The notes beneath the pieces were generated by a model that did not search any database, was not told the DNA's origin, and was given only the letters and a program-made list of their open reading frames with translations. 64,000 bases of DNA from a bacterium (lineage in GTDB: Bacteria; Patescibacteriota; Minisyncoccia; Phycocordibacterales; Phycocordibacteraceae): contig JBBCGK010000001.1 of the NCBI GenBank assembly GCA_037200965.1, positions 64,001-128,000 of the forward strand, in the 5' to 3' direction. Every line of letters begins with the position of its first letter. The stretch's first letter is position 1. A program made the position numbers and the translations under genes. Positions 2,530 to 43,982 of the stretch are shown here, piece after piece.

Positions 2530-3375
2530 ATGCATGAGGGGATCGCAATCCACCTGGCGCCTTTGGCGCTTTTTCATATCGGGTCGTTCGCAGTGACGAA
2601 CACGCTCTTCACGACGCTCCTGGTATCCCTCCTCCTCATAGTCTTCGCGTATTTCGCCGGGCGCTCCTTGAAGCTCAAGCCCGGCAAGTTCCAGGCGGTC
2701 CTCGAGCTCATCATCGTGTTCCCGTATACTTTCGTGCGGGATACCCTCGAGGACGAGAAGGCAGCGGAGAAGCTCTTCCCGATCGTGATGACCATCTTCC
2801 TCCTCGTTCTCACGGTCAACTGGTTCGGGCTTTTGCCGATAGGCGAGGGGATAGGGTTCGGAGGAGAGCACGGTTTCGTGCCGCTCTTCCATGCGAGCTC
2901 CACCGACCTCAACTTCACCCTCGCGCTCGCGCTCGTCGCCTTCTTCACGATCGAGATATTCGGCATCGCGGCCCTGGGCGCGTTTAAGTATGGAAAGAAA
3001 TTCATCACCTTTGCGTCGCCTATCGCTTTCGTAGTAGGCTTGATAGAACTCGTCTCCGAAGTGGCGCGGCTGATCTCGTTCTCCTTCCGCCTCTTCGGAA
3101 ACGTGTTCGCGGGCAAGGTACTCATACTCGTGCTCGCGTCGTTCGTGCCGCTTCTCCTGCCCGTACCGTTCCTGGCGTTCGAGCTCTTCGTGGGCTTCAT
3201 CCAGGCGGCGATCTTCGCCCTCCTCACGCTCTTCTTCACGAAGATCGCGATCTCGGGACACGCGGAGCACGAGCATGCGGACGGCCACGACGGCGCGGAG
3301 CACGGCCTTGCGCATGCGGTGGTCGACGAGCGCGACCTGCCGCACGGCATTACAAAAACAACCATCACCACCTAA
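2530..3375 (+). CDS. atpB: F0F1 ATP synthase subunit a
   Basis: Polytopic membrane protein with the conserved ...SFSFRLFGNVFAG... (essential Arg) motif; first gene of the atp cluster; TGaTAAAAT -10 lies 6 nt before the ATG; unusual His/Asp-rich C-terminal tail. Confidence 0.9.
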   Translation: MHEGIAIHLAPLALFHIGSFAVTNTLFTTLLVSLLLIVFAYFAGRSLKLKPGKFQAVLELIIVFPYTFVRDTLEDEKAAEKLFPIVMTIFLLVLTVNWFGLLPIGEGIGFGGEHGFVPLFHASSTDLNFTLALALVAFFTIEIFGIAALGAFKYGKKFITFASPIAFVVGLIELVSEVARLISFSFRLFGNVFAGKVLILVLASFVPLLLPVPFLAFELFVGFIQAAIFALLTLFFTKIAISGHAEHEHADGHDGAEHGLAHAVVDERDLPHGITKTTITT

Positions 3376-3609
<234 letters not shown>

Positions 3610-5854: not shown

Positions 5855-6763
5855 ATGGCCCTCAAGGACATCAAATCGAAGATAAAGGCGACGCAGCGGA
5901 CCAACAAGGTCACGCACGCGATGGAGGCTGTCTCTGCCGTGAAGATGAGAAAGACCCAAGGATCGGCGCTCGCAGGACGCCCGTATGCGAGAGCCGCACT
6001 CGCAATTCTTGCACGGCTTTCGGGGAGTAGCGATCTCGCGCGCCATCCGCTCGCGACACTTCGGCCCGTGAAGAAGACTGCCTTCGTCGTGATTACGAGC
6101 GACAAGGGGCTTGCAGGTGCCTTGAATGCAAACGTACTCAAAGCCGCGGCGCAGGCGCTTGAGGGGAAAGCGCAAGAGAGCATCACCATCTTCGCGTACG
6201 GCCGCAAGGGTTCGGAGTATTTCTCACGCCGCAGCTACCGTATCAAGAAGACTTTCGAGAACAAGAGCGATACTATCGAGCTTTCCGGCATGGAAGAGCT
6301 CTCGCTGGAACTCTCGGCAGGATTCCTTGCCGGGGAATTCGACGAAGTCCTTGCGGTCTATAGCAACTTCAAGAGCACGTTCGAGCAGGCGCCGACGGTA
6401 CGGAAACTCCTCCCGCTTTCCCTTTCCGCCGTGTCGGAGCTGGTTTCCGACATCGCTCCGGAGAAAGGGAAGTTCGCGGAGACCGCTCCGATCAAGGCAC
6501 CTCCGGCCTACACTATCGAGCCCTCGGCCGGGGAAGTGCTCGGCGTGCTTATCCCGAAGCTCGTCGCCGTCTCCCTCTATCACATGCTCCTTGAGGCGAA
6601 GGCGTCCGAGCATTCGGCGCGGATGATCGCCATGAAGAACGCGTCGGAGAAGTCGGAGGAGGTGGCGCACGACCTCACGCGCCTCTTCAACAAGATCCGT
6701 CAGGCGGCGATCACGCGGGAGGTGTCGGAGATCGTTGGCGGGCGGGAGGCGCTTGCTTCATGA
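5855..6763 (+). CDS. atpG: F0F1 ATP synthase subunit gamma
   Basis: N-terminal MALKDIKSKIKATQRTNKVTHAMEAVSAVKMRK and C-terminal ...ITREVSEIVGG typical of gamma; operon position. Confidence 0.9.
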   Translation: MALKDIKSKIKATQRTNKVTHAMEAVSAVKMRKTQGSALAGRPYARAALAILARLSGSSDLARHPLATLRPVKKTAFVVITSDKGLAGALNANVLKAAAQALEGKAQESITIFAYGRKGSEYFSRRSYRIKKTFENKSDTIELSGMEELSLELSAGFLAGEFDEVLAVYSNFKSTFEQAPTVRKLLPLSLSAVSELVSDIAPEKGKFAETAPIKAPPAYTIEPSAGEVLGVLIPKLVAVSLYHMLLEAKASEHSARMIAMKNASEKSEEVAHDLTRLFNKIRQAAITREVSEIVGGREALAS

Positions 6764-6766
6764 CGC

Positions 6767-7156
6767 ATGCCGAAAGACTATACGAAATGGCACGAGGTCA
6801 AGTCCGCGATCGAAGAACACAGGAATCCCCCGTTCTTCAACGAGCGCGAGGTATGGTGGAGCTCGCTCGGCGCGAATATCGGAACGGAACAGGACGGGAA
6901 GAACGCCCGGTTTGAGCGTCCGGTAATCATCGTGCGCAAATTCAATAAGGACTTGTTCTGGGGCGTACCAGCCACGCTCCAGAGCAAGGATGACGCATTC
7001 CATTTCGGCTTCATGCTTTCGGGAATCGAGCAGCGCGCGATCGTCTCGCAAATCCGCACATTGAGCGCGAAACGGCTCATCCGCCGCATCGGCAAGCTGC
7101 CCGAGCCGAAGTTCGCAGGACTTAAGGAGGCGATCGAATCCTTGATGAGGCGATAA
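6767..7156 (+). CDS. MazF/PemK-family toxin-fold protein (endoribonuclease-like), no adjacent antitoxin
   Basis: 129 aa; alignable by eye to E. coli MazF: GxEQxGxxRP, (C/G)VPxTxQSK...F...LSG and DQVKSI/SQIRTL...G segments; ATG sits 3 nt after the atpG stop. Confidence 0.65.
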   Translation: MPKDYTKWHEVKSAIEEHRNPPFFNEREVWWSSLGANIGTEQDGKNARFERPVIIVRKFNKDLFWGVPATLQSKDDAFHFGFMLSGIEQRAIVSQIRTLSAKRLIRRIGKLPEPKFAGLKEAIESLMRR

Positions 7157-7258: not shown

Positions 7259-7288
7259 TTGTGGACGGCACTCCGCATCGGGTATAAT
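7259..7288 (+). promoter_or_regulatory. sigma70-like promoter (TTGTGG-N18-TATAAT) driving a noncoding transcript
   Basis: -35 ttgtgg at 7259-7264 and -10 tataat at 7283-7288; no start codon within 9 nt downstream, unlike most promoters in this window. Confidence 0.5.
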
Positions 7289-7294
7289 CGTGTC

Positions 7295-8907
<1,613 letters not shown>

Positions 8908-8908
<1 letters not shown>

Positions 8909-33095: not shown

Positions 33096-33314
33096 ATGAA
33101 AGATACGGGAGGTATAGAACCGGTAACAGGCACCGTTGAAGAGGTGCTCCCTAACTCGTTATTTCGGGTCAGGATGCCGGACGGAGAGCTCCAGCTCTCG
33201 TATCTTGCGGGGAAGATGCGGCTGCACCGCATCCGCGTCCTCGTCGGGGATTCGGTCGAGCTCGTGACCGATCCGTACGGCGGAAGGGCGCGCATCGTGA
33301 GAAGGCTCAGCTAA
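33096..33314 (+). CDS. infA: translation initiation factor IF-1
   Basis: 72 aa S1-like fold ...[31 protein letters not shown]...[11 protein letters not shown]. Confidence 0.9.
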
Positions 33315-33322
33315 TTACACAC

Positions 33323-33439
33323 ATGAAAGTACGCGCATCTATTAAAAAGCAGCAGCCTGGAGATTTGCTCGTCCGCCGCGGCGGGCGTCTTTATCGCATC
33401 AACAAGCTGAAGCCGAGACGAAAGGCGCGTCAGGGTTAA
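33323..33439 (+). CDS. rpmJ: 50S ribosomal protein L36 (Zn-ribbon-less variant)
   Basis: 38-aa MKVRASIKK...[21 protein letters not shown]; canonical Cys/His zinc ligands absent; below the ORF-track length cutoff. Confidence 0.75.
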
Positions 33440-33462
33440 TTTTGAATATCTAAGTACTACCT

Positions 33463-33843
33463 ATGCGTATCGCCGGCGTATCCATCCCAGACGACAAGCA
33501 GCTCGCCTACTCGCTGCCGCTTATCTACGGCATCGGCCCTACCCGCGCGCTCGATATCCTCGCGAAAGCGGGCATCCCGGCAACGAAGAAAGGAAGCGAG
33601 CTCTCGTCGGACGAGGAGCAGAAAGTCCGCTCCCTGGCCGAAGGGTATACGATCGAAGGGGAACTGCGCCGCGAAATCGGACAGAACATAAAGCGCCTTA
33701 AGGATATCCGTTCATGGAGGGGCAACCGCCACGAGCGGCACATGCCGGTGCGAAGCCAGCGCACGAAGACCAATTCCCGCACCGTGCGCGGGAACGTGCG
33801 AAAGACCATGGGATCGGGACGCCGCACGCTCGAGAAGACTTAA
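33463..33843 (+). CDS. rpsM: 30S ribosomal protein S13
   Basis: MRIAGVSIPDDKQLAYSLPLIYGIGPTRALDILAKAGI... Confidence 0.9.
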   Translation: MRIAGVSIPDDKQLAYSLPLIYGIGPTRALDILAKAGIPATKKGSELSSDEEQKVRSLAEGYTIEGELRREIGQNIKRLKDIRSWRGNRHERHMPVRSQRTKTNSRTVRGNVRKTMGSGRRTLEKT

Positions 33844-33865
33844 TCGTACGCACCACTAAATCATC

Positions 33866-34300
33866 ATGGGTAAGAAACGAATCATCAAGAAGAGCGGGCG
33901 CGGCATGGACCAGGGACGCAAGGAGCGCGCCCTCTCCAAGGTTTCGAAGCGCCGCCTCGAGCGCGGCGTCCTCCACGTCGAGGCTACCTTCAACAATACC
34001 AAGGCCGTCCTCACCGACGAGAAAGGAAACGCGGTCATCTCTTCTTCCGCGGGAGCTCTCGGCTTTGCGGGCGCGCGCAAGTCGACTCCGTTCGCCGCGA
34101 CGAAAGTGGGCGAGCTCCTCGGCGAGAAGGCTGCGGCGATCGGCGTCAAGGAGGCGAGCGTTATCATCCGCGGCATCGGCGCCGGGCGCGAGTCGGTGCT
34201 CCGCGGCTTCTCGGCGAAAGGCATCCAGATCCGCGCCATCAAGGACGCGACCCCGATTCCTCATAACGGCCCGCGCCCGCCTAAGGCCCGCCGCGTCTAA
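33866..34300 (+). CDS. rpsK: 30S ribosomal protein S11
   Basis: ...GVLHVEATFNNTKAVLTDEKGNAVISSSAGALGFAGARKSTPFAA... Confidence 0.9.
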   Translation: MGKKRIIKKSGRGMDQGRKERALSKVSKRRLERGVLHVEATFNNTKAVLTDEKGNAVISSSAGALGFAGARKSTPFAATKVGELLGEKAAAIGVKEASVIIRGIGAGRESVLRGFSAKGIQIRAIKDATPIPHNGPRPPKARRV

Positions 34301-34309
34301 TCCATCACC

Positions 34310-34918
34310 ATGATCACCGGACCACGATACAAGATAGCGAAGCGCCTCGGGGCGAGCGTGTTCGAGAAAGCGCAGACGCAGAAGTTCGCGATTTCCGCCG
34401 AGCGCAAGGGAAAGGTACGCAAGGGCCGTCCGCGCGGCGCTTCCGAGTTCGGCAAGCAGCTTCTCGAGAAGCAGAAGGTGCGCGTGACGTACGGCGTCGG
34501 GGAACGGCAGTTCAGCCGCTACGTGAGCGAAGCGGTAGAGTCCGGCCACAACCCGGCCGAGCGGCTCCACCAGACGCTTGAGCTCCGGCTCGACAATGTG
34601 CTCTATCGTCTGGGACTCGCGAAGACGCGCCGCGGTGCCCGCCAGATGGCATCCCACGGGCATGTGACGGTGAACGGAAAACGCATCACCGTCCCTTCCG
34701 CGATGATCCGCCCGGGCGACGTCCTCAAGGTCCGCGAGGGAAGCCGGAAGTCCGTCCTTTTCGAAGGATTCAAGGAGCGCTTCGCCGAGAGCCCGCTCGC
34801 TTCGTGGCTTACCTTCAATCCGGAAACCATGGAGGGAGGCGTGAAGGAGATGCCGACCGCCGCTTCGGCGGATCCAGCAGGCGACCTTCTCGCCGTGCTT
34901 TCGTTCTACAGCCGTTAA
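34310..34918 (+). CDS. rpsD: 30S ribosomal protein S4
   Basis: MITGPRYKIAKRLG...; S4 domain ...RLDNVLYRLGLAKTRRGARQMASHGHVTVNGKRI. Confidence 0.9.
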   Translation: MITGPRYKIAKRLGASVFEKAQTQKFAISAERKGKVRKGRPRGASEFGKQLLEKQKVRVTYGVGERQFSRYVSEAVESGHNPAERLHQTLELRLDNVLYRLGLAKTRRGARQMASHGHVTVNGKRITVPSAMIRPGDVLKVREGSRKSVLFEGFKERFAESPLASWLTFNPETMEGGVKEMPTAASADPAGDLLAVLSFYSR

Positions 34919-34947
34919 TTTAATAATCTAGGTAATACGATTGAGTT

Positions 34948-35898
34948 ATGGAACACCACATCACACTGCCAAGCAAGCCGCGCATCGTCTCCGAAGAGGG
35001 GATGGCGGGCATGTACGAGATCGATTCGCTGTATCCGGGCTACGGCCACACGCTCGGCAACAGCCTCCGCCGCATCATCCTTTCCTCGCTTCCGGGCGCG
35101 GCCGTCACCTCGGTCAAGATCGAGGGCGTGCCGCACGAGTTCGCCACGATGGAAGGCGTGCGCGAGTCGGTCATGGAAGTGCTCCTCAACCTCAAGCGCG
35201 TGCATTTCACGCTCCACACCGACGAGCCGCAGACCATCTCGCTTTCCGTAAAGGGGCCAAAGCACGTCACGGCGGCCGATTTCAAGCTCCCGAGCCAGGT
35301 GGAGATCGCGAATCCGGAGCAGCACATCGCCGACGTTTCGGGCAAGATCGCGTTCGAACTCGAAGCGTCGATCGAGCGCGGCCTCGGCTATGTCCCGCGC
35401 GAAGTCCTTACCAAAGAGAAAGTCGACATCGGCGCGATCGCGCTTGATGCGACCTTTACGCCTATCCGCCGCGTGAACTACGAAGTCGAGAACATGCGCG
35501 TCGGCGACCGCACCGATTTCAATCGCCTTCGCATCCTCATCGAGACCAACGGCACTATCGCTCCCCGCGAGGCGCTTGAGCGCTCGATCGAGATCATGAT
35601 CCACCAGCTCAAGTCGGTTATCGGCTTCCAGGAGGAAGCGGCACCGAGCCCCGAGGTGAAGCTCGAGGCGGAGTCTTCTTCGGAAGGAACGGCGGACTCG
35701 ACAAAAATGAAAGTCGAGGATCTCGGCCTTTCGGCCCGCGTCACCTCCGCCCTTACGGATGCGGGCATCCGTTCCGCCGCGGGCCTCGCGCGCAAAAGCG
35801 CGTCCGCCCTTGAGGAGCTCGACGGCATCGGCGAGAAGGCTATCGCGGAAATAGAAAGTGCGCTAAACTCCCTCGGTCTCGCGCTTAAGAAGGACTGA
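34948..35898 (+). CDS. rpoA: DNA-directed RNA polymerase subunit alpha
   Basis: N-terminal dimerisation domain ...GHTLGNSLRRIILSSLPGAAVTSVKIEGVPHEF...; C-terminal HhH alpha-CTD. Confidence 0.9.
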   Translation: MEHHITLPSKPRIVSEEGMAGMYEIDSLYPGYGHTLGNSLRRIILSSLPGAAVTSVKIEGVPHEFATMEGVRESVMEVLLNLKRVHFTLHTDEPQTISLSVKGPKHVTAADFKLPSQVEIANPEQHIADVSGKIAFELEASIERGLGYVPREVLTKEKVDIGAIALDATFTPIRRVNYEVENMRVGDRTDFNRLRILIETNGTIAPREALERSIEIMIHQLKSVIGFQEEAAPSPEVKLEAESSSEGTADSTKMKVEDLGLSARVTSALTDAGIRSAAGLARKSASALEELDGIGEKAIAEIESALNSLGLALKKD

Positions 35899-35920
35899 TA
35901 CGGCGGGTACACGGAAAGCC

Positions 35921-36268
35921 ATGCGACACAACAACAAAGGACGTGCGTTCAACCGACCAGACAACCAGCGCGCCGCGCTCGTCCGGTCTCTTGCGCGCGC
36001 CCTTATCCTCGAGGAACGCATCTCGACGACCGAGGCCAAGGCGAAGGAACTCCGTCCCTTCATCGAGAAGCTCGTGACGCGCTCGAAAGCTGATACGGTC
36101 GCGAACCGCCGCCTTATCTCTTCGAGGCTCGGGAGCCCCGAGGCCGTCAAGAAGCTCTTCACGACGCTCGCGCCGCGCTATGCGGAAACGAACGGCGGCT
36201 ATACCCGCATCGTGAAGCGCCCGGCGACCGCAAACGGCCGCATGACCGCCTATATAGCTTTCGTCTAA
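35921..36268 (+). CDS. rplQ: 50S ribosomal protein L17
   Basis: MRHNNKGRAFNRPDNQRAALVRSLARALILEERISTTEAKAKELRPFIEKLVT. Confidence 0.9.
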   Translation: MRHNNKGRAFNRPDNQRAALVRSLARALILEERISTTEAKAKELRPFIEKLVTRSKADTVANRRLISSRLGSPEAVKKLFTTLAPRYAETNGGYTRIVKRPATANGRMTAYIAFV

Positions 36269-36269
36269 C

Positions 36270-36623
36270 ATGGAACCGAAACAGTACACCATCGATGCCA
36301 GGAATCAGTCGCTCGGACGCGTCGCAAGCGAAGCCGCTTCGATGCTCATGGGCAAGAAGTCCGCGCACTTCGTCAAAAACCAGATCCTTCCGGTCACCGT
36401 GACCATCACGAACGCTTCGAAACTCTCGCTTCCCGAGCGCCGCGTCGCCGGAAAGGAGTACACCCATTACACCGGCTATCCGGGCGGCCTCAAGGTCCAG
36501 GGCCTTGCCGAGATGATCGAGAAGAAGGGAGTGGGCGAGGTGCTCCGGAAGGCGATCGACGGCATGATCCCGCGCAACAAACTGCGCAAGGGCCGCATGA
36601 AGCTGCTTACCATCATCGACTAA
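36270..36623 (+). CDS. rplM: 50S ribosomal protein L13
   Basis: ...YTIDARNQSLGRVASEAASMLMGK... typical L13 N-terminus. Confidence 0.85.
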   Translation: MEPKQYTIDARNQSLGRVASEAASMLMGKKSAHFVKNQILPVTVTITNASKLSLPERRVAGKEYTHYTGYPGGLKVQGLAEMIEKKGVGEVLRKAIDGMIPRNKLRKGRMKLLTIID

Positions 36624-36631
36624 CTTTATTT

Positions 36632-37033
36632 ATGTCTGACTCTACCAAATACAGCGCGGCAGTCGGACGCAGGAAGACTGCGACCGCTTCGGTTCGGATC
36701 ACGAAAGCCGATACGGCGAGCGTGACCGTGAACGGCAAGAGCGCGAAAGACTATTTCAAGACCATGGAACGCACCAAAGTCGCCGAGGAAGCGCTTTCGG
36801 CAAAGGATCTCGCCGGTACCTATGCGGTTTCCGCGCGCGTCTCCGGAGGCGGCGTCGCCGCCCAGGCGGAAGCCGTCCGCCACGCGATTTCCCGCGCGAT
36901 CCTCAAGGAAGAGGCGGGCATGCGCGGTACGCTTAAGACCGCCGGATACCTGCGCCGCGACCCCCGCGCTGTCGAGCGCAAGAAGCCGGGACTTCGGAAG
37001 GCCCGCAAGTCTCCGCAGTGGAGCAAGCGTTAG
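36632..37033 (+). CDS. rpsI: 30S ribosomal protein S9
   Basis: GGGVAAQAEAVRHAISRAIL...RRDPRAVERKKPGLRKARKSPQWSKR. Confidence 0.9.
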   Translation: MSDSTKYSAAVGRRKTATASVRITKADTASVTVNGKSAKDYFKTMERTKVAEEALSAKDLAGTYAVSARVSGGGVAAQAEAVRHAISRAILKEEAGMRGTLKTAGYLRRDPRAVERKKPGLRKARKSPQWSKR

Positions 37034-37087
37034 TTCGGGAGTGTTTCCCCGGAAGCCTTTATCCCCGTCTTATCTTGTTTCGCTACG

Positions 37088-37303
37088 ATGAACTGCAGGT
37101 TCAGAATTCTCGAACGCGCGCTGAGCACCGAACATATCAAGCAGACAATCCGGGAGCCGGATATAAAGCGCGGTGCCGGAGAGGGAACGGTTAAGGTTTG
37201 GAAAAGACTTGATGCGGGCGTAAGGATCGTAGTAGTATACTCGCAAGGCAGAATCCGGAACCGCAAGAACGATTATTTCGTAATTACGGCATACTACTTA
37301 TGA
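37088..37303 (+). CDS. DUF4258-family protein (putative toxin of a type II TA-like pair)
   Basis: ...FRILERALSTEHIKQTIREPD...VKVWKRLDAGVRIVVVYSQG...YFVITAYY fits the DUF4258 pattern (F..HA.ER...I....V...PD....K.....GR.LRVVY......VITAY). Confidence 0.65.
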   Translation: MNCRFRILERALSTEHIKQTIREPDIKRGAGEGTVKVWKRLDAGVRIVVVYSQGRIRNRKNDYFVITAYYL

Positions 37304-37536
37304 AAATCACCTACGACAAACTGGCGGACGCGGCATATATGACGTTGCGGAAAGGGAAAGTGGCGAAGACCGTCGAAATGAGCGGAGACGTTATCATCGA
37401 TCTCGACAAGCGCGGGCATATTCTCGGCATAGAGATGCTCGCCGCTTCAAATCAATTCGCAAAGGGAGATCTTGCGAGGAATACGATCCCCGGCATTCCG
37501 GTTGAAATAATTTCCCGCTCGCCCGTTACCGTATAA
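37300..37536 (+). CDS. DUF2283-family protein (putative antitoxin partner)
   Basis: MKITYDKLADAAYMTL...DVIIDLDKRGHILGIEMLAAS matches the DUF2283 signature (MKITYDKEADALYI...G.IVGIEIL.AS); 4-nt ATGA overlap with the upstream gene. Confidence 0.65.
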   Translation: MKITYDKLADAAYMTLRKGKVAKTVEMSGDVIIDLDKRGHILGIEMLAASNQFAKGDLARNTIPGIPVEIISRSPVTV

Positions 37537-37541
37537 ATACC

Positions 37542-37691
37542 ATGAACTGCCCGAAATGCGGAAAGCCGATGGAAGCGGATGCCGGACGCTCCAGGGAAAC
37601 GACCAATTCGGAAACCGGAACGAGATACGACCATATCCAATACGTGTGCCGGGAAGACGACGTGTGGGTCACTACTGAAATCCCTAAATAA
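37542..37691 (+). CDS. possible 49-aa zinc-ribbon protein
   Basis: MNCPKCGKPMEA...YVCREDDVW: CxxC plus a distal Cys; below the ORF-track size cutoff; weak signals. Confidence 0.3.
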   Translation: MNCPKCGKPMEADAGRSRETTNSETGTRYDHIQYVCREDDVWVTTEIPK

Positions 37692-37699
37692 CTAAGGAC

Positions 37700-38257
37700 A
37701 TGCGGGACGAACGAGATGAATTCGAAATAGACGCGGAAGCCGCGGAGAACCGCCGTGCGCAGGGGGAAGACACGGACGCCGCAGATGAAACGGGCGCTGC
37801 CGGGAAAGTCGCAAAGTTGAAGAGGGAGATTGAGGCTCTTAAAAAGGAGAAGCAGGAATACCTCGACGGCTGGCAGCGCTCCAAGGCCGACTACGCGAAC
37901 GCGCAGAAGCGCTTCGACGAGGAGCGGACGGAAGCCGCCGCACGGGGAGCCGCGAGAGCCGCAGAGGCGCTTCTCCCCGCGCTCGACAGCCTCGAGCGGG
38001 CCAAAGCCTCGGGAGAGCTTCCGGAAAGTTTCGCGGGCATCGTAAAACAGCTTGAAACGGGGTTCGCGAAGCTCGGTCTCGTCCCGTTTGGCGCCGCAGG
38101 CGATACGTTCGACCCGGCGCTCCACGAAGCGCTCGGAAGCGATACGGCCGCATCGGCGGACGAAGACGGAACAATCACGGCGGTGCTTGAGCCGGGATAC
38201 CGGATGGGCGAACGTGTGCTTCGTCCGGCGAAGGTGCGCGTTGCGCATCTTGCATAG
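37700..38257 (+). CDS. grpE: nucleotide exchange factor GrpE
   Basis: Acidic N-terminus, coiled coil ...LKKEKQEYLDGWQRSKADYANAQKRFDEE..., C-terminal ...ITAVLEPGYRMGERVLRPAKVRV. Confidence 0.85.
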   Translation: MRDERDEFEIDAEAAENRRAQGEDTDAADETGAAGKVAKLKREIEALKKEKQEYLDGWQRSKADYANAQKRFDEERTEAAARGAARAAEALLPALDSLERAKASGELPESFAGIVKQLETGFAKLGLVPFGAAGDTFDPALHEALGSDTAASADEDGTITAVLEPGYRMGERVLRPAKVRVAHLA

Positions 38258-38334
38258 CCGGTTGCGGGGAGTAAAATAAAAGCATCTGCGCGAGCGGGCG
38301 TATTTATAAGGGCAAATCCTTAACCTATTTCACA

Positions 38335-40221
38335 ATGGCAAAAATCCTCGGCATAGACCTCGGTACCACGAACTCCGCGATGGCGATCATGGAGGGCGGC
38401 AAGCCGCGCATCATCGAGAACGCGGACGGCGCCCGCACGACCCCTTCGGTGGTCGCAATCTCCAAAAGCGGCGAGCGGCTCGTCGGGACGCTCGCCAAGC
38501 GCCAGGCGGTCACGAACCCGAAGAATACCGTCTATGGCATCAAGCGCTTCATGGGCCACCGCTTCCAGGACGAAGCGGTCCGGCGGGATACGGGCATCGT
38601 ACCGTACGAGGTGAAGGCGAGCGCCGATGGCGGCGTCGTGGTGCATCTTGGCGACAAGGACTACCGCCCGGAGGAGATAAGCGCGATGATCCTCGGCAAG
38701 CTCAAGGCGGACGCGGAAGCGAAGCTCGGCGAGAAGATCACGGAGGCCGTGATCACCGTTCCCGCGTACTTCGACGACGCGCAGCGAAACGCGACCAAGG
38801 CGGCGGGCCAGGTCGCGGGGCTCGACGTGAAGCGCATCATCAACGAGCCGACCGCGGCGGCGCTCGCGTACGGTTTCAATAAGAAGAAGGACGAGAAGAT
38901 CGTGGTGTATGACTTCGGCGGCGGCACCTTCGACGTGTCGGTGCTCGAAGTCGGGGACGACGTGATCGAAGTGAAGGCGACCGACGGGGACAGCCACATG
39001 GGCGGCCGTGACATCGACCAGAAGCTCGTGAAGCATATCGCGGCAGAGTTCCAGAAGGAGAGCGGCATCGACGTCACGAAGGATCCCCTTGCCCTCCAGC
39101 GCCTCGATGAGGCTGCGGAAAAGGCGAAGCAGGAGCTTTCCTCTTCCGCGGAGGCGGAAATCAACATTCCGTTCATCACCTCGGGCGCGGACGGGCCGAA
39201 GCATCTCCTTCTCAAGATCACGCGCGCTACCCTGGAGAGTCTCGCGGACGAATACGTTACCCGCTCGATCGATATCACCAAGCGCGCGCTTGAAGCCGCT
39301 GGCCTCAAGCCTTCGGACGTGCAGGAGATCGTGATGGTCGGCGGCCAGACGCGCATGCCGAAAATCCTCGAGGAAGTGAAGAAGCTCTTCGGGAAGGAGC
39401 CGAACCTTTCGGTGAATCCGGATGAAGTAGTCGCTATCGGCGCGGCCATCCAGGCCGGAATCCTCCAGGGCGACGTGAAGGATATTCTTCTGGTGGACGT
39501 CATCCCGCTCTCGCTTTCGATCGAAACCATGGGCGGCGTCGCGACCAAGCTCATCGAGCGCAACACCGCCGTCCCGACGAGCCGTTCGCAGACCTTCTCG
39601 ACCGCCGCAGACAATCAGACTTCGGTCGAGATACACGTGACCCAGGGCGAGCGCGCGATGGCCGCGGACAACAAGTCGCTCGGCAAATTCATGCTCGACG
39701 GCATTCCTCCGGCACCCCGCGGCATGCCGCAGGTCGAAGTATCCTTCGACCTCGACACCAACGGTATTCTCACGGTGAAGGCCAGAGAAAAGACCACGGG
39801 CAAGGAGCAGTCCATCCGCATCGAGGGCTCGACCGGGCTCTCGAAGGAGGACATCGAAAAAATGAAAGCCGACGCGGAAGCGCACGCGGGCGAAGACCAG
39901 AAGAAGAAAGAACTTATCGATGCCCGGAACCTCGGCGAGCAGATGGCCTATACCGCCGAGAAGGCGATCAAGGATGCCGGAGACAAAGCGCCAGCCGAGG
40001 TCGTCACGGAAGTGAACGAGAAAATCGTACTCGTGAAGCAGGCGAATGCCGGAGAGGATCTCCCGGCCATCAAGTCCGCAAGCGAGGCGCTCTCGGCGTC
40101 GCTTTCGAAGATCGGAGAAGCCATGATGAAGGCGCAGGAAGCGCAGACGCCGCCCGCAGGAAATCAAACCCCTCCGCCGGAAGCAGGCGCGACCGACGCG
40201 GAATTCAAGGAGAAGGAATAG
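38335..40221 (+). CDS. dnaK: molecular chaperone DnaK (Hsp70)
   Basis: [35 protein letters not shown] and other Hsp70 signatures; 628 aa. Confidence 0.95.
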
Positions 40222-40247
40222 AAACGATCGTACGAGTGAAGGAAATC

Positions 40248-40270
40248 AAGACCCGCTCTTCGCGGGTCTT
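40248..40270 (+). terminator. hairpin terminator after dnaK
   Basis: aagacccgc-tcttc-gcgggtctt, overlapping the -35 of the next promoter. Confidence 0.5.
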
Positions 40271-40299
40271 GACACGTTACCACTGTATACTGTATAAAT
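40269..40299 (+). promoter_or_regulatory. sigma70-like promoter (TTGACA-N18-TATAAAT, with TG extended -10)
   Basis: ttgaca...ctgtataaat upstream of the 40331 ORF (RBS GGAG). Confidence 0.5.
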
Positions 40300-40330
40300 A
40301 GTCCCGGATCAACACAACGCGGAGTTTGCC

Positions 40331-40567
40331 ATGTCACATGCTTCAGTAAATGAAGGGAACAAGGCTTCTGTTCCTTCCGGAAAGCTCTCAGACATCATCT
40401 TTGCCATCGTTTTCGGGATTGTGCTGGTGATCATCGCGGACAATCTGGTGGTGGAGCCGCTCTTCAACTTCTTCACCAGCGAAAGGCCGGTGACGTCTCC
40501 GGTCTGCGACGATCCGGATGACTCCTCCGTCTACTGTTATCCGCACAAATGGTGGCAGGTCTGGTAA
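40331..40567 (+). CDS. small membrane protein
   Basis: 78 aa; one TM ([20 protein letters not shown]); Cys-containing tail. Confidence 0.4.
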
Positions 40568-40674
40568 CGATATCCCGGACACGACAGTTTTTCCGCGAAA
40601 GGCGGCCGCTTGGCCGCCTTTCTGTATTGCCGCACGATTTTGCGCGCGCCCGTGAAGAGGCGTATACTTTTCAT

Positions 40675-41754
40675 ATGGCAAAAAACTACTACGAAACTCT
40701 GGGCGTCGAGAAGAACGCGAGCCAGGACGATATCAAGAAGGCCTTCAGGAAGCTCGCGCAAAAGCACCACCCGGACAAAGGAGGCGACGAGGCGAAGTTC
40801 AAGGAGATCACGGAAGCATACTCGACCCTTTCCGACGAGAAGCGGCGGAAAGAATACGATTCATACGGGCGAAGCTTTGCGGGAGGAGGCCCCGGCGCCG
40901 GGCAGGCGGGAGGATTCGGCGGATTCGATTTCAGCGGATTCGAGCAAGGGGGATTCGAGAATGTCGACTTCGGCGACATGTTCGAGGGCTTCGGCGACCT
41001 CTTCGGCGGCAGAAGGGCCGCGCGGGCGCCGCGCGGGCGCGATATCTCGATCGACATCGAAGTATCCTTCAAGGACTCGGTGCTCGGCACCAGGCGTTCG
41101 GTGCTCATCGCCAAGGTCGGGCAGTGCGATGTTTGTAAGGGGAACGGAGCGAAGCCCGGTACCGAGCTTGAGACCTGCAAGACCTGCGGCGGTTCGGGAC
41201 GCGTCCATGAAACCCGCAACTCGATACTCGGTACCTTCTCAAGCGTGCGTACGTGCGCGCACTGCGACGGTACGGGAAAGATCCCGAAGGAAAAATGCCA
41301 CGCGTGCGGCGGCAAGGGCGTGAAGCGGCAGGAAGAGGAGATACAGATCCAGGTACCTGCGGGAATCGATAATGGCGAGATGGTACGTCTCCCGCAGCAA
41401 GGGGAAGCCATAAAAGGAGGGGCTGCCGGAGACCTTTACGTGAAGATCCACGTAAAGCCGCATCCGGTGTTCCGCAAGGATGGCGCGAACCTCGTCATGG
41501 AGCTCCCCCTGAAACTCACCGACGCGCTCACGGGCACTACGGTCTCCGTCGAAACCATAGAAGGGAAGACGCTCGAGGTGAAAGTGCCAGCCATGAGCCG
41601 CACCGAGGAAGTGCTCCGCATCCGCGACAAGGGAGTGCCCGTGGAAGGGGGACAGCGCGGAGACCTTCTGATCCGCACCTCGGTCACGCTTCCGAAGAAG
41701 TTATCCTCGAAAGCGAGGAAGGCGGTGGAGGAACTGAAATCGGAAGGGTTATAA
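40675..41754 (+). CDS. dnaJ: molecular chaperone DnaJ
   Basis: J-domain with HPD ([13 protein letters not shown]), G/F-rich linker, four CxxCxGxG repeats ([32 protein letters not shown]); TATACT -10 lies 6 nt before the ATG. Confidence 0.9.
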
Positions 41755-41761
41755 TGTTCGC

Positions 41762-42139
41762 ATGAACGCGTTCATATCGTCGCTGTATACCGGCTACGCG
41801 CTCTATGCCGTCTTTCCCTATCTCCCGACGGTACTTTCCTGGGGCGGTACGCCGGAAATAAAGCTCGCGCTCACGCTTGGCGTCTATGCTCTTGCCGTAG
41901 CGGTGGCTTTTCCCGTGCTCAAGAGATTCATGGGAGCGAGCTTCTCCCGCAGCTTCGCGCCGCTTGCGATCCTCGGGCTTCTCGCGCTCGGGTTCATCAT
42001 CGCCATGCTCTATCACGTCTTCGGCGCGACGGCAGTCGTGAACCTGCCGCCGCTCCTCGATACGCTCTTCGCGCCCAAAGGCCTCTTCTTTTATTGGTTT
42101 ATCGCTCCCCTGGTCGGACTTTTCTTCCTTTCCCGATAG
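41762..42139 (+). CDS. hypothetical membrane protein (4 TM)
   Basis: 125-aa hydrophobic ORF, 7 nt after the dnaJ stop. Confidence 0.45.
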   Translation: MNAFISSLYTGYALYAVFPYLPTVLSWGGTPEIKLALTLGVYALAVAVAFPVLKRFMGASFSRSFAPLAILGLLALGFIIAMLYHVFGATAVVNLPPLLDTLFAPKGLFFYWFIAPLVGLFFLSR

Positions 42140-42160
42140 ATGGGCATCGCGTCCGGTATT

Positions 42161-42188
42161 TTGCTAGAGCGCAATTTTATGCTATAAT
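42161..42188 (+). promoter_or_regulatory. sigma70 promoter TTGCTA-N16-TGcTATAAT, 6 nt upstream of the start codon (leaderless)
   Basis: ttgcta gagcgcaattttatgc tataat tacgat ATG. Confidence 0.6.
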
Positions 42189-42194
42189 TACGAT

Positions 42195-43982
42195 ATGAAA
42201 GAAGAGGAAAAGCCTACATTCACGTGGCAGGAGAAGAAAACGGCGCTGTGGCGCCAGCTTCGTCCGTACAAAACACCCCTGATGTGGCTTTCGGCCATTG
42301 AGATCTTCTTCGCGGTCGGGAACGGCGTCATCCCCTATATCACCGGCCGCTTCTTCGACGCCCTCATTCCGCCCTACCATTCGGTCGTCGTTGCGACGGA
42401 GAGCCTGCCGTTGTGGCTCGTACTGCTTCTCGTGTGGCTGCTCACTCAGATAATCACGAACGTCATAAGCTGGGTATCCGACCTTAAGAGCCAGTTGCTT
42501 ACTACCGAGCTGCATGCGGGAGTGCAGGCGCGGGCTTTCGCCCACCTGCTCACGCTCCCGGTCAACTACCACAAAAAGCACCGGTCCGGAGAGATAAGCA
42601 ACCTTATCGACCGCGGCGGGTGGATGCTGAGTTCGCTCGTCAACCTCGGCCTGTCCCTTGCGCCGCAGTTCCTGACCATCCTTATCGGCGTCGTCATCTC
42701 GTTCATGATCCAGCCGATGCTCGCGCCCGTACTCCTGGCCGGAGTCGCGGTGTACTGCTTCCTGCTTCTCTATATCCTTCCGGCGACGAACGACTATCAG
42801 GAAAAGGGCATCGAGATCTGGAATAAAGCGTACGGCGACGCGGCCGATGCGTATACGAACGTGCATACCGTGAAGCAGGCCGGGGCGGAGCAGTATGAAG
42901 GAAAACAAATCATAGACGGCCTGCTCGGCAAGGCCGTGCCGATGTACTATCGTTTGGAGAAACTTTGGAGCAATCTTAACTTCTCCCAGCGCATCGTCGT
43001 TACTCTTACCCAGACGGTGATTTTCCTGTTCTCCGCCTTCCTTATCACGCGCGGCGAGCTCACGATCGGCGGGCTCATAGCCTTCAACGCGTATGCGGGG
43101 ATGATTATCGGCCCGTTCGTGTCCCTTGGGCGGCAGTGGCAGACCGTACAGGGCGCGCTCGTGACGATGGCAAAGCTCGAAATCGTATTTGGCACGGAAC
43201 CGGAAAACTACGAACCGCTCAATGCCATCCGCCTGCCGGATGTCCGCGGCGATGTCGAGTTCGACGACGTCCATTTCAGATATGAGGCGGATCAGCCGGA
43301 GATACTGAAAGGCGTTTCTTTTACAGCCACAGCAGGCGAGGTCGTTGCGTTCGTCGGCGAGACGGGGGTCGGCAAATCGACGACCGCCGAACTTATCTCC
43401 GGCTACTATTTCGCAAACGAAGGCAGGATCCTGATCGACGGGCACGATATCCGACAGGTGAATCTCCGGGAACTCCGGAGCCGCATCGCCATCGTCCCGC
43501 AGGAAGTCGTGCTGTTCAACTCGAGCATCAAGGACAATATCCGGTACGGACGGCCGGACGCGACGGATTCCGAAGTGGAGCTCGCAGCCAGGCGCGCGCA
43601 TGCTGACGTATTTATCGACAAGTTCCCGATGAAATACGAGCAGGAGGTCGGGGAGCGGGGCATCAAGCTTTCGGTCGGACAGAAGCAGCGCGTCGCCATC
43701 GCGCGCGCTATGCTCCGGAATCCGCGCATCCTTATACTTGATGAGCCGACCTCGGCGCTTGATGCAGAGACCGAGCGATACATCACCAAATCGCTCGAAG
43801 AGCTTATGAAGGGGCGCACGACCTTCATCATCGCGCACCGCCTCTCGACCGTACGCAAAGCCGACCGCATTATCGTTCTTGAAGAAGGAAAGATCGCGGA
43901 AATGGGCACCCACGACGAGCTTATGGCCAATAACGGGAAGTATTCCCAGCTGTATAACCTCCACATCGGGCTTCGCGAATAG
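42195..43982 (+). CDS. ABC transporter, fused permease/ATP-binding exporter (MsbA/MdlB-like)
   Basis: 6-TM domain plus NBD with Walker A GETGVGKST, signature LSVGQKQRVAIARA, Walker B ILILDEPTSALD. Confidence 0.9.
   Translation: MKEEEKPTFTWQEKKTALWRQLRPYKTPLMWLSAIEIFFAVGNGVIPYITGRFFDALIPPYHSVVVATESLPLWLVLLLVWLLTQIITNVISWVSDLKSQLLTTELHAGVQARAFAHLLTLPVNYHKKHRSGEISNLIDRGGWMLSSLVNLGLSLAPQFLTILIGVVISFMIQPMLAPVLLAGVAVYCFLLLYILPATNDYQEKGIEIWNKAYGDAADAYTNVHTVKQAGAEQYEGKQIIDGLLGKAVPMYYRLEKLWSNLNFSQRIVVTLTQTVIFLFSAFLITRGELTIGGLIAFNAYAGMIIGPFVSLGRQWQTVQGALVTMAKLEIVFGTEPENYEPLNAIRLPDVRGDVEFDDVHFRYEADQPEILKGVSFTATAGEVVAFVGETGVGKSTTAELISGYYFANEGRILIDGHDIRQVNLRELRSRIAIVPQEVVLFNSSIKDNIRYGRPDATDSEVELAARRAHADVFIDKFPMKYEQEVGERGIKLSVGQKQRVAIARAMLRNPRILILDEPTSALDAETERYITKSLEELMKGRTTFIIAHRLSTVRKADRIIVLEEGKIAEMGTHDELMANNGKYSQLYNLHIGLRE

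Follow-up and report, generated by a model that had tools for sequence, protein, structure and literature searches.

Among known systems, those closest to the gene pair analysed here are predicted toxin–antitoxin pairs such as two that lie on plasmids. Thermus thermophilus pTthSNM1-1e and Athalassotoga saccharophila pATS2 carry the same two families, DUF4258 and DUF2283, with the toxin gene first and products of ~75–90 and 75–80 residues. The present pair, orf1 and orf2, comes from 64,000 nucleotides (nt) of the genome of a bacterium of the Phycocordibacteraceae (Patescibacteriota; Minisyncoccia; assembly GCA_037200965.1, contig JBBCGK010000001.1, positions 64,001 to 128,000), a stretch called the window below, and is situated between rpsI, the gene for ribosomal protein S9, and grpE. 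The pATS2 genes overlap by 4 nt, as do orf1 and orf2, and the plasmid DUF2283 proteins share ~42–44% identity with the orf2 product over the aligned part; an intact toxin query gave no plasmid match. In contrast to the plasmid pairs, the window pair is chromosomal and part of a core operon, and its toxin lacks the N-terminus and a conserved histidine (His).

A survey of E. coli found the partner of DUF4258 strictly downstream (PMC10790755). DUF4258 modules are listed antitoxin-first, contrary to the order here, by Gerdes 2025 (PMC11980606), who includes DUF4258 among the toxins of toxin–antitoxin (TA) systems in the RelE/ParE superfamily, with the target given as ‘unknown’ and no references.

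Further likenesses are found in toxins of the barnase–EndoU–colicin E5/D–RelE (BECR) fold. BrnT/BrnA of Brucella abortus is a type II TA system with a BECR-fold ribonuclease (RNase), is toxin-first as here, and has a Pfam profile that a few members of the orf1 family weakly match. However, sequence identity is only ~9%, the activity of BrnT is demonstrated whereas that of DUF4258 is predicted only, and its partner BrnA is a ribbon-helix-helix DNA-binding antitoxin and not a DUF2283 protein. Colicins D and E5 and the CdiA C-terminal (CdiA-CT) transfer RNA nucleases (tRNases) belong to the same topology class, with conserved residues on a pre-alpha helix and the last strand, and share a conserved pre-alpha His with the intact DUF4258 relatives. 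Yet those are found at the C-terminus of large secreted toxins and are paired with unrelated immunity proteins, whereas the DUF4258 protein here is free-standing and intracellular and has a DUF2283 partner. The locus also resembles orphan antitoxins and anti-addiction modules, in which an antitoxin is kept without a functional cognate toxin while related intact modules reside on mobile elements. Reports of orphan antitoxins are widespread in surveys of Klebsiella and of E. coli (PMC7192599, PMC10790755); the window case differs from them in its clade-wide, core-level conservation, its position inside housekeeping operons and its reduced genome of ~1 Mb.

The explanation that best accounts for the locus, and that we consider probable though far from settled, is that in a Kaiserbacteria-like lineage a cassette of the type II TA kind has become fixed as a co-transcribed passenger between rpsI and grpE, its toxin probably attenuated and its antitoxin-like gene selectively retained. 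Comparisons with related loci provide the evidence: the pair is recurrent and mobile in its distribution, the toxin gene is eroded in the window and decays repeatedly elsewhere, and the DUF2283 gene persists at full length.

The DUF4258/DUF2283 pair and its recurrence

The first-pass annotation of the window described three open reading frames (ORFs) between rpsI and grpE, the first two overlapping by 4 nt; all three are confirmed, as are their flanks:

36632..37033, + strand: rpsI (ribosomal protein S9), upstream flank; Pfam Ribosomal_S9, 126 bits
37034..37087, + strand: rpsI–orf1 spacer of 54 nt, carrying the eroded 5’ end of the toxin gene, from in-frame translation against intact homologs
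37088..37303, + strand: orf1, 71 residues, homolog of DUF4258-family toxins with a predicted colicin-like BECR fold, from homology and a structural model
37236..37241, + strand: TATACT hexamer, candidate internal −10 element for orf2, from codon comparison in 12 lineages
37300..37536, + strand: orf2, 78 residues, DUF2283 (YuzE-like), predicted antitoxin; Pfam DUF2283, 57.4 bits
37542..37691, + strand: orf3, 49-residue ORFan with C3-x2-C6 ... H31-x4-C36; open reading frame
37700..38257, + strand: grpE, downstream flank; Pfam GrpE, 117 bits
38335–40221: dnaK, 3’ of grpE; from the gene table

In the gene order of the window, rpsI closes the block rpsM-rpsK-rpsD-rpoA-rplQ-rplM-rpsI. The 666 nt between its stop codon (37033) and the grpE start (37700) are occupied by orf1–orf3, with spacers of 54, −4, 5 and 8 nt along rpsI-orf1-orf2-orf3-grpE. 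The orf1 stop and orf2 start share ATGA at 37300–37303 (context TTATGA).

The first-pass annotation assigned the two overlapping genes to DUF4258 and DUF2283. By direct scan orf1 falls below the curated threshold for Pfam DUF4258 (PF14076; 15.9 bits, E 0.016, cut-off 25; profile positions 6–70 of 71), and NCBIfam contributes nothing for orf1–orf3. The family assignment is nevertheless upheld by the relatives of orf1. A word-based search found 5–6 homologs, which are 75–76 residues long and 50–65% identical, and a profile built from the relatives retrieved 224 proteins at E ≤ 0.001 among 1.84 billion cluster representatives. Among 115 full-length members in the alignment, 114 match DUF4258 at E ≤ 0.01 (best 1.5e-15). 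The single miss is the window protein, which nevertheless scores 129 bits against the profile of its relatives; membership therefore holds. Secondary Pfam matches in the family are to PBECR3 (22 members) and, in a few members each, to PBECR2, BrnT and Colicin_E5.

An AlphaFold2 model of orf1 (predicted local distance difference test, pLDDT, 83.6) consists of a pre-alpha helix, an alpha helix and a four-stranded antiparallel sheet; an earlier model, built from 6 sequences, was too poor for use (pLDDT 58). Foldseek by itself found nothing significant with the orf1 model, while structural comparison names colicins D and E5, RelE, ParE, YoeB and HigB2. The colicin-like BECR topology has been described as pre-alpha, alpha and beta1–4, with the active site on the pre-alpha helix and last strand and commonly with a catalytic His, and DUF4258, which overlaps the earlier Ntox49 family, is explicitly placed in this group (bioRxiv 10.64898/2026.08.28.747851). 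Since the predicted topology is colicin-like and the homology agrees, orf1 is a homolog of DUF4258/BECR-fold toxins, by transitive homology and modelled fold. The characterised proteins of the colicin-like BECR fold are RNases, most of which cut tRNA.

For orf2 the assignment is direct, with 57.4 bits to Pfam DUF2283 (PF10049; E 1.7e-15, cut-off 23, profile positions 1–49 of 49), and the source annotation likewise reads ‘DUF2283 domain-containing protein’. COG5428, ‘YuzE’, is described as a predicted antitoxin. The word-based search yielded 64 orf2 homologs, against the 5–6 for orf1, and the named close ones belong to Candidatus Kaiserbacteria or Paceibacterota. No Pfam DNA-binding domain and no relative in the PDB by sequence were found for orf2, and the only match in PHROGs, also for orf2, scores 17 bits. 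The label ‘DUF2283’ has been tied to FseA, an activator of integrative and conjugative elements (PMC4755241); an FseA-like role for orf2 was considered and set aside, as neither similarity nor context favours it here.

Relatives retrieved from species-representative genomes all come from metagenome-assembled genomes of the Candidate Phyla Radiation (CPR)/Patescibacteria that bear the labels Saccharibacteria, Paceibacterota or Minisyncoccia. Wherever a retrieved locus has a toxin homolog (loci and lineages are numbered L004 and upwards), a DUF2283 gene comes directly after it, overlapping it or starting 4–13 nt further on; the pairing of orf1 with orf2 is far beyond chance. The pair occupies at least five different chromosomal sites: rpsI/grpE in many lineages, rplB/rpsS inside the S10 operon (L004–7, L053/54), rpsG/fusA (L013), trpS/aspS (L010; this junction is empty in the window), a position after secDF (L008) and one uninformative site (L014). 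An intact pair is also present on an IMG/VR viral contig, where it adjoins a large lysozyme or tail-like ORF, and distant DUF4258/DUF2283 pairs occur in the same order on the small Thermus plasmids and the Athalassotoga plasmid, the latter beside an integrase gene, a MazE-type gene and IS256. The claim that the arrangement is recurrent is thus borne out in CPR genomes, a viral contig and plasmids of two other genera. The behaviour of the pair suggests a mobile type II TA cassette, with two small, co-oriented, coupled genes in conserved pairing and a patchy, mobile distribution (empty sites in L016 and L021; viral and plasmid copies).

The rplB/rpsS insertion of L004 holds a second small gene pair (6397–6866, − strand; 81 and 75 residues, 4-nt overlap), which resembles a RelE/ParE-type module by eye and has no Pfam match.

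Decay of the toxin gene and persistence of DUF2283

The order of the pair, toxin then antitoxin, is as first described, but the window copy of the toxin is not a standard DUF4258 protein. Intact homologs start M-x-L-K-F-T-x-H-[AC]-Q-x-R, whereas window orf1 starts M-N-C-R-F-R. In-frame codons upstream of it (...L-S-C-F-A-T) still align with the M-x-L-K-F-T N-terminus of the intact homologs, and the frame contains no ATG, GTG or TTG between the rpsI stop and the orf1 ATG. Since the upstream codons align without a start, the alignment places the orf1 start six codons downstream of its former position, with six N-terminal residues and the first strand gone. In addition, His8 (family numbering) has become Asn (residue 2 of window orf1), a position at which His is found in 90% of 140 aligned members and in ~98% of the members with a residue there. 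The other near-invariant residues, R12, E15, R16, P30, D31, K45, Y56, T72 and Y74 (family numbering), are kept.

Window orf1 is 54–62% identical to intact copies, which are mostly 68–79% identical among themselves. This drop of ~14 points compares with ~3 for orf2 and RpoA and with 11 for RpsI; because RpsI drops too, part of the extra divergence of orf1 is a lineage effect. The orf1–orf3 proteins are identical in two other assemblies, so the peculiarities of orf1 are not sequencing errors. The rpsI–orf1 spacer retains no DNA similarity to relatives. As the residue lost is the one predicted most likely to be catalytic, window orf1 is probably attenuated or catalytically dead; the data suggest a protein that is still made and folded, its loss of activity being read from the missing His. 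Annotation should not count window orf1 as an active toxin without evidence.

Other lineages with DUF2283 behind rpsI display toxin genes in graded states of decay. The toxin is intact (76 residues, with the His) in L009/45, L011, L012 and L047. In L037–40 its first 13 codons are replaced and no start remains, a strong hairpin-plus-T-run following rpsI; in L015 only the last 24 codons are left, joined 5 nt past the rpsI stop; and in L041/42 and L043/44 the remnant has shrunk to ...AYYL-stop, ~5 codons abutting the orf2 ATG. Outside this site, L055/56 have a gene for a class II aminoacyl-tRNA synthetase followed, after 23 nt, by a solo DUF2283 gene, and here too a toxin remnant is left (...SYYL-stop). 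One further lineage is less clear. L046 (2837–3204) has a 21-residue internal in-frame deletion in the toxin, on a long-read contig in which orf2 is also frameshifted and error is possible, and L048/49, two independent assemblies of the same lineage, have a run of ~100 N in mid-toxin (about 2850–2950); this pattern may reflect population heterogeneity, scaffolding gaps or read errors. By these comparisons of coding remnants, the toxin is repeatedly lost while the DUF2283 gene persists intact.

orf2 is full length in all reliable cases among the rpsI-linked lineages and L055/56. Its identity between the window and relatives is 61–80%, and in the same genomes RpoA is 72–78%, DnaK 71–76%, RpsI 59–70%, RplM 59–69%, RplQ 58–63% and GrpE 50–57% identical to the window proteins, which puts the conservation of orf2 on a par with that of RpoA and DnaK. 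Nei–Gojobori ratios of nonsynonymous to synonymous substitution (dN/dS) for orf2 are 0.03–0.2 in all least-saturated pairs, toxin-less lineages included (L015–L047 0.09, L009–L041 0.15 and window–L041 0.11, for example). As far as sequence comparison can tell, the component under durable selection is the DUF2283 gene.

Searches based on orf1 and orf2 place DUF2283 directly downstream of rpsI in ~10 Kaiserbacteria-like lineages (L009/45, L011, L012, L015, L037–40, which are Kaiserbacteria GWA2_50_9, L041/42, L043/44, L046/48/49 and L047) whose RpoA and DnaK are 71–78% identical to those of the window. The site can also be empty. In L016, the closest relative recovered (DnaK 93%, RpsI 82% and GrpE 77% identical), the rpsI stop is followed after 21 nt by the grpE ATG, with no module between; L021 likewise has rpsI and then grpE directly, and L017 has an unrelated 243-residue coiled-coil gene in between. 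In an unbiased scan based on GrpE, four loci contained rpsI as well as grpE, and all four were without the module. The first-pass annotation had the module ‘wedged’ between the two genes and named as a check whether related genomes join them directly. L016 does join them directly, but with DUF2283 after rpsI in ~10 lineages, often beside a degraded or deleted toxin, the module is not a recent wedge. Universal conservation at this position, which was taken in advance to point to a housekeeping role, is likewise found only in part: it applies to the antitoxin-like gene alone, within one clade.

The 21-nt spacer of L016 (534–554) contains TAGTATACT. The same 9-mer encodes V-V-Y-S in the window toxin (37230–37241), and GGTATACT lies upstream of the L012 toxin. 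The 9-mer in the spacer may be what is left of a module since deleted, or these junctions may have reused a −10-like element.

Explanations for the retained gene

An intact cassette would comprise a small BECR-fold RNase, probably directed at tRNA by analogy with the colicin-like group, and a DUF2283 protein that restrains it by binding. The dependence between toxin and antitoxin would make the pair hard to lose; phages and plasmids would carry it, and it would insert between co-directional genes. In this genome, the shortened toxin without its His, a residue carried by the active-site helix in the colicin-like group, would probably be harmless beside an intact DUF2283 gene, while orf1, if still translated and folded, would continue to couple the translation of orf2. 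It is most plausible that DUF2283 persists by neutralising related incoming toxins, an anti-addiction or immunity role favoured because a viral contig carries an intact pair. It might in addition act as a regulator.

Several points weigh against this explanation. Toxicity, RNase activity and neutralisation are all ascribed to DUF4258/DUF2283 by analogy, and no PADLOC model matches orf1 or orf2. The frame of orf1 is open and every near-invariant residue other than the His is kept, so the protein may have kept activity through a different mechanism; RelE and colicin E5 are examples of BECR toxins that function without a catalytic His. orf2 lacks a recognisable DNA-binding domain, and the idea that it has a promoter of its own (see below) rests on a weak motif. 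For the dN/dS ratios given above, synonymous divergence is near saturation and the pairs mix time before and after toxin loss, so that selection after the loss is not isolated. Finally, orf2 distances show no significant correlation with those of host genes (Mantel r 0.21, p about 0.2); long vertical residence at rpsI/grpE is unproven, and exchange between lineages is possible.

If the 71-residue protein were still toxic without its His and were neutralised in cis by DUF2283, the locus would be a functional TA module of the classic addiction type. Three assemblies show the same open orf1 frame, all near-invariant residues except the His are retained (R12, E15, R16, T72 and Y74 among them), the model folds confidently, the coupling through ATGA is preserved, the new ATG is no worse than other starts in a genome that lacks Shine-Dalgarno sequences, and RelE and colicin E5 again offer precedents. 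We nonetheless regard a working toxin as unlikely, because the missing His is kept in ~98% of members with a residue there and occupies the position of the catalytic His of the colicin-like group, the N-terminal strand is gone as well, and window orf1 is the sole DUF4258 failure among 115 members, with ~14 identity points of extra divergence where orf2 and RpoA show ~3. Independent toxin losses in sister lineages further indicate that the toxin is dispensable. Another reading reverses the emphasis and treats DUF2283 as a domesticated or housekeeping protein tied to the operons for translation and chaperones, perhaps a regulator or a factor associated with RNA or the ribosome, with DUF4258 as a dispensable accessory. 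Its conservation at the level of core genes and low dN/dS would fit, as would the solo DUF2283 genes kept after rpsI (L041, L043) and after an aminoacyl-tRNA synthetase gene (L055), the 5 of 7 chromosomal sites that adjoin ribosomal protein, elongation factor G or aminoacyl-tRNA synthetase genes, and the position immediately upstream of grpE-dnaK, where no hrcA or CIRCE was seen. We think this quite unlikely, given that the gene is missing from L016, and from L017 and L021 despite their rpsI-grpE synteny, and is hence non-essential; that every solo copy has remnant toxin codons, which shows its descent from a pair; and that the same pair is found on a viral contig and plasmids. The enrichment of sites, moreover, comes from a small and biased sample.

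It is extremely improbable that the ORFs arose by chance or through annotation error in an intergenic region of unusual length. Such an origin fits orf3 alone, with its 49 codons, no homologs and sub-threshold motif matches; for orf1 and orf2 it is already refuted by homologs numbering from dozens to hundreds, by the conserved adjacency of the two genes and by purifying selection.

The fixed passenger cassette with a probably attenuated toxin is the preferred explanation. A bolder proposal, which we hold to be rather doubtful, is that DUF2283 was domesticated within a clade of Kaiserbacteria-like CPR bacteria and became a quasi-core gene there, repeatedly outliving its toxin through a function of its own. 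If so, this function could be standing immunity to BECR tRNase toxins from CPR phages or host cells, or else control of the downstream grpE-dnaK or of translation genes, and the places where such genes lodge would be after rpsI, within the S10 and str operons and next to aminoacyl-tRNA synthetase genes. Clade-wide, core-like conservation of an antitoxin-like gene in housekeeping operons of reduced genomes, combined with graded toxin decay, is mildly new. DUF4258/DUF2283 is a widespread predicted TA family, and the natural series of intact, His-less truncated, startless, 24-codon and 5-codon toxins could guide its first characterisation. The series shows that selection in ultra-small, reduced genomes keeps the antitoxin-like gene and not the toxin. 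This is relevant to the disputed question of what maintains TA genes on chromosomes, whether addiction, anti-addiction or immunity, or domestication.

Site history, expression and neighbouring genes

The module has 49–53% GC against ~62% in its flanks. This dip was considered as a sign of recent transfer and rejected, as the pair is 4–10 points below its host in every lineage and broadly tracks host GC; GC at third codon positions in orf2 is 0.46–0.63 while that of the hosts spans 0.42–0.81 (r 0.57). The dip is a property of the gene and carries no time stamp. Movement between sites has certainly occurred: the host of L010 is distant (TrpS 57% and AspS 38% identical to the window), and its pair, at trpS/aspS, nonetheless falls within the group of rpsI-linked copies (orf2 identity up to 85%). 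For the rpsI/grpE site, the data do not distinguish between a single ancient insertion later lost in places (L016, L017), gain on several occasions and exchange between lineages. Flanking repeats at the module are limited to short two-copy matches, none convincing, and no recombinase, integrase or transposase gene lies near it in the window.

A scan of 36500–38500 revealed no consensus promoter, no full −35/−10 combination and no terminator on the + strand, and no dedicated promoter or operator turned up for orf1-orf2; Rfam gave no match at E ≤ 1 over the same interval, and the RNA of the rpsI–orf1 spacer folds no better than shuffled sequence. The window contains no CIRCE element, and no hrcA was seen. 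Together with the tiny spacers, these results suggest that transcripts of the ribosomal block run on through grpE-dnaK and that the translation of orf2 is coupled to that of orf1. No Shine-Dalgarno sequence is recognisable at the clear genes of 33096–42195 (infA, rpsM, rpsK, rpsD, rpoA, rplQ, rplM, rpsI, dnaK and others), so that its absence before orf1 and orf3 is uninformative about translation. Within this interval grpE alone has AAGGA upstream.

In 10 of 12 lineages the codons for V-V-Y-S in the toxin read nTA-TAY-T and so produce TATACT or TATATT, despite changes of the residue (V/I/L). In the window, 58 nt separate the hexamer from the orf2 ATG downstream of it. Of the 12 lineages, 7 have GTG as the codon before the motif; where TATACT follows, this reads TGnTATACT, an extended −10. 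The deletion in L015 ends just upstream of a motif of this type. An internal antitoxin promoter is known for mqsRA, and it is a weak hypothesis that TATACT might serve orf2 in the same way; L041 and L043 lack a TATACT-type element, and codons ending in A are common in these genes, which weakens the motif.

The first-pass annotation also counted the 49-residue CxxC ORF as part of the module, which does not stand. No homolog of orf3 other than itself was found among 5.8 billion proteins, blastn and tblastn gave no DNA or protein match at the equivalent position in relatives, and its Pfam zinc-ribbon matches are all far below threshold; it is seen only in the window strain. The slot between orf2 and grpE varies by lineage and may hold nothing, a 79-residue secreted-looking protein, a 147-residue protein, proteins of 118/127 and 100 residues, a 74-residue protein, a PGPGW-like 82-residue protein or a glyoxalase. 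As orf3 is an ORFan and the slot content differs in each lineage, it is either a lineage-specific small gene or a chance ORF, lies outside the pair, and should not be annotated as part of the module.

Lineage-specific small genes are frequent at the rpsI/grpE junction, which is a hotspot for them in L009, L012, L017, L037–41, L043 and L046–49; none is related to window orf3. In L041, a peptidase C39-like gene on the opposite strand (2565–3500) is inserted between rpsI and DUF2283, and a duplicated 3’ fragment of rpsI (...LRGTLKKLGYLTRDPRAKERKK...SKR-stop-stop) lies directly upstream of the solo DUF2283 gene.

Two further features surround the start of orf1. It shares the frame of rpsI, which is stop-free from the rpsI TAG (37031–37033) to the orf1 ATG, and read-through of the TAG would yield an S9-linker-orf1 fusion; a shared frame has a one-in-three chance of arising by coincidence. 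A 13-nt near-repeat, TAC[G/C]ATGAACTGC, at 37084–37096 and 37538–37550 covers the start codons of orf1 and orf3, both of which consequently start M-N-C. Chance alone would give, on a rough reckoning, ~0.2 such matches in 900 nt, so this near-repeat is probably a coincidence.

A MazF-like gene elsewhere in the window, which the first-pass annotation had taken for a second toxin-like element embedded in a core operon, is corroborated by a Pfam PemK_toxin match:

6767–7156, + strand: PemK/MazF-like toxin gene, 129 residues; Pfam PF02452, 36.7 bits, E 5e-9

BLAST queries with E. coli MazF and B. subtilis NdoA missed this gene, and the Pfam scan found it. No obvious antitoxin partner was seen beside it; a 61-residue ORF is located nearby at 7259–7444. 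Its flanks are ORFs of 302 residues (5855–6763) and 475 residues (7481–8908) that look like atpG and atpD, and if they are these genes, the MazF-like gene would lie inside the ATP synthase operon.

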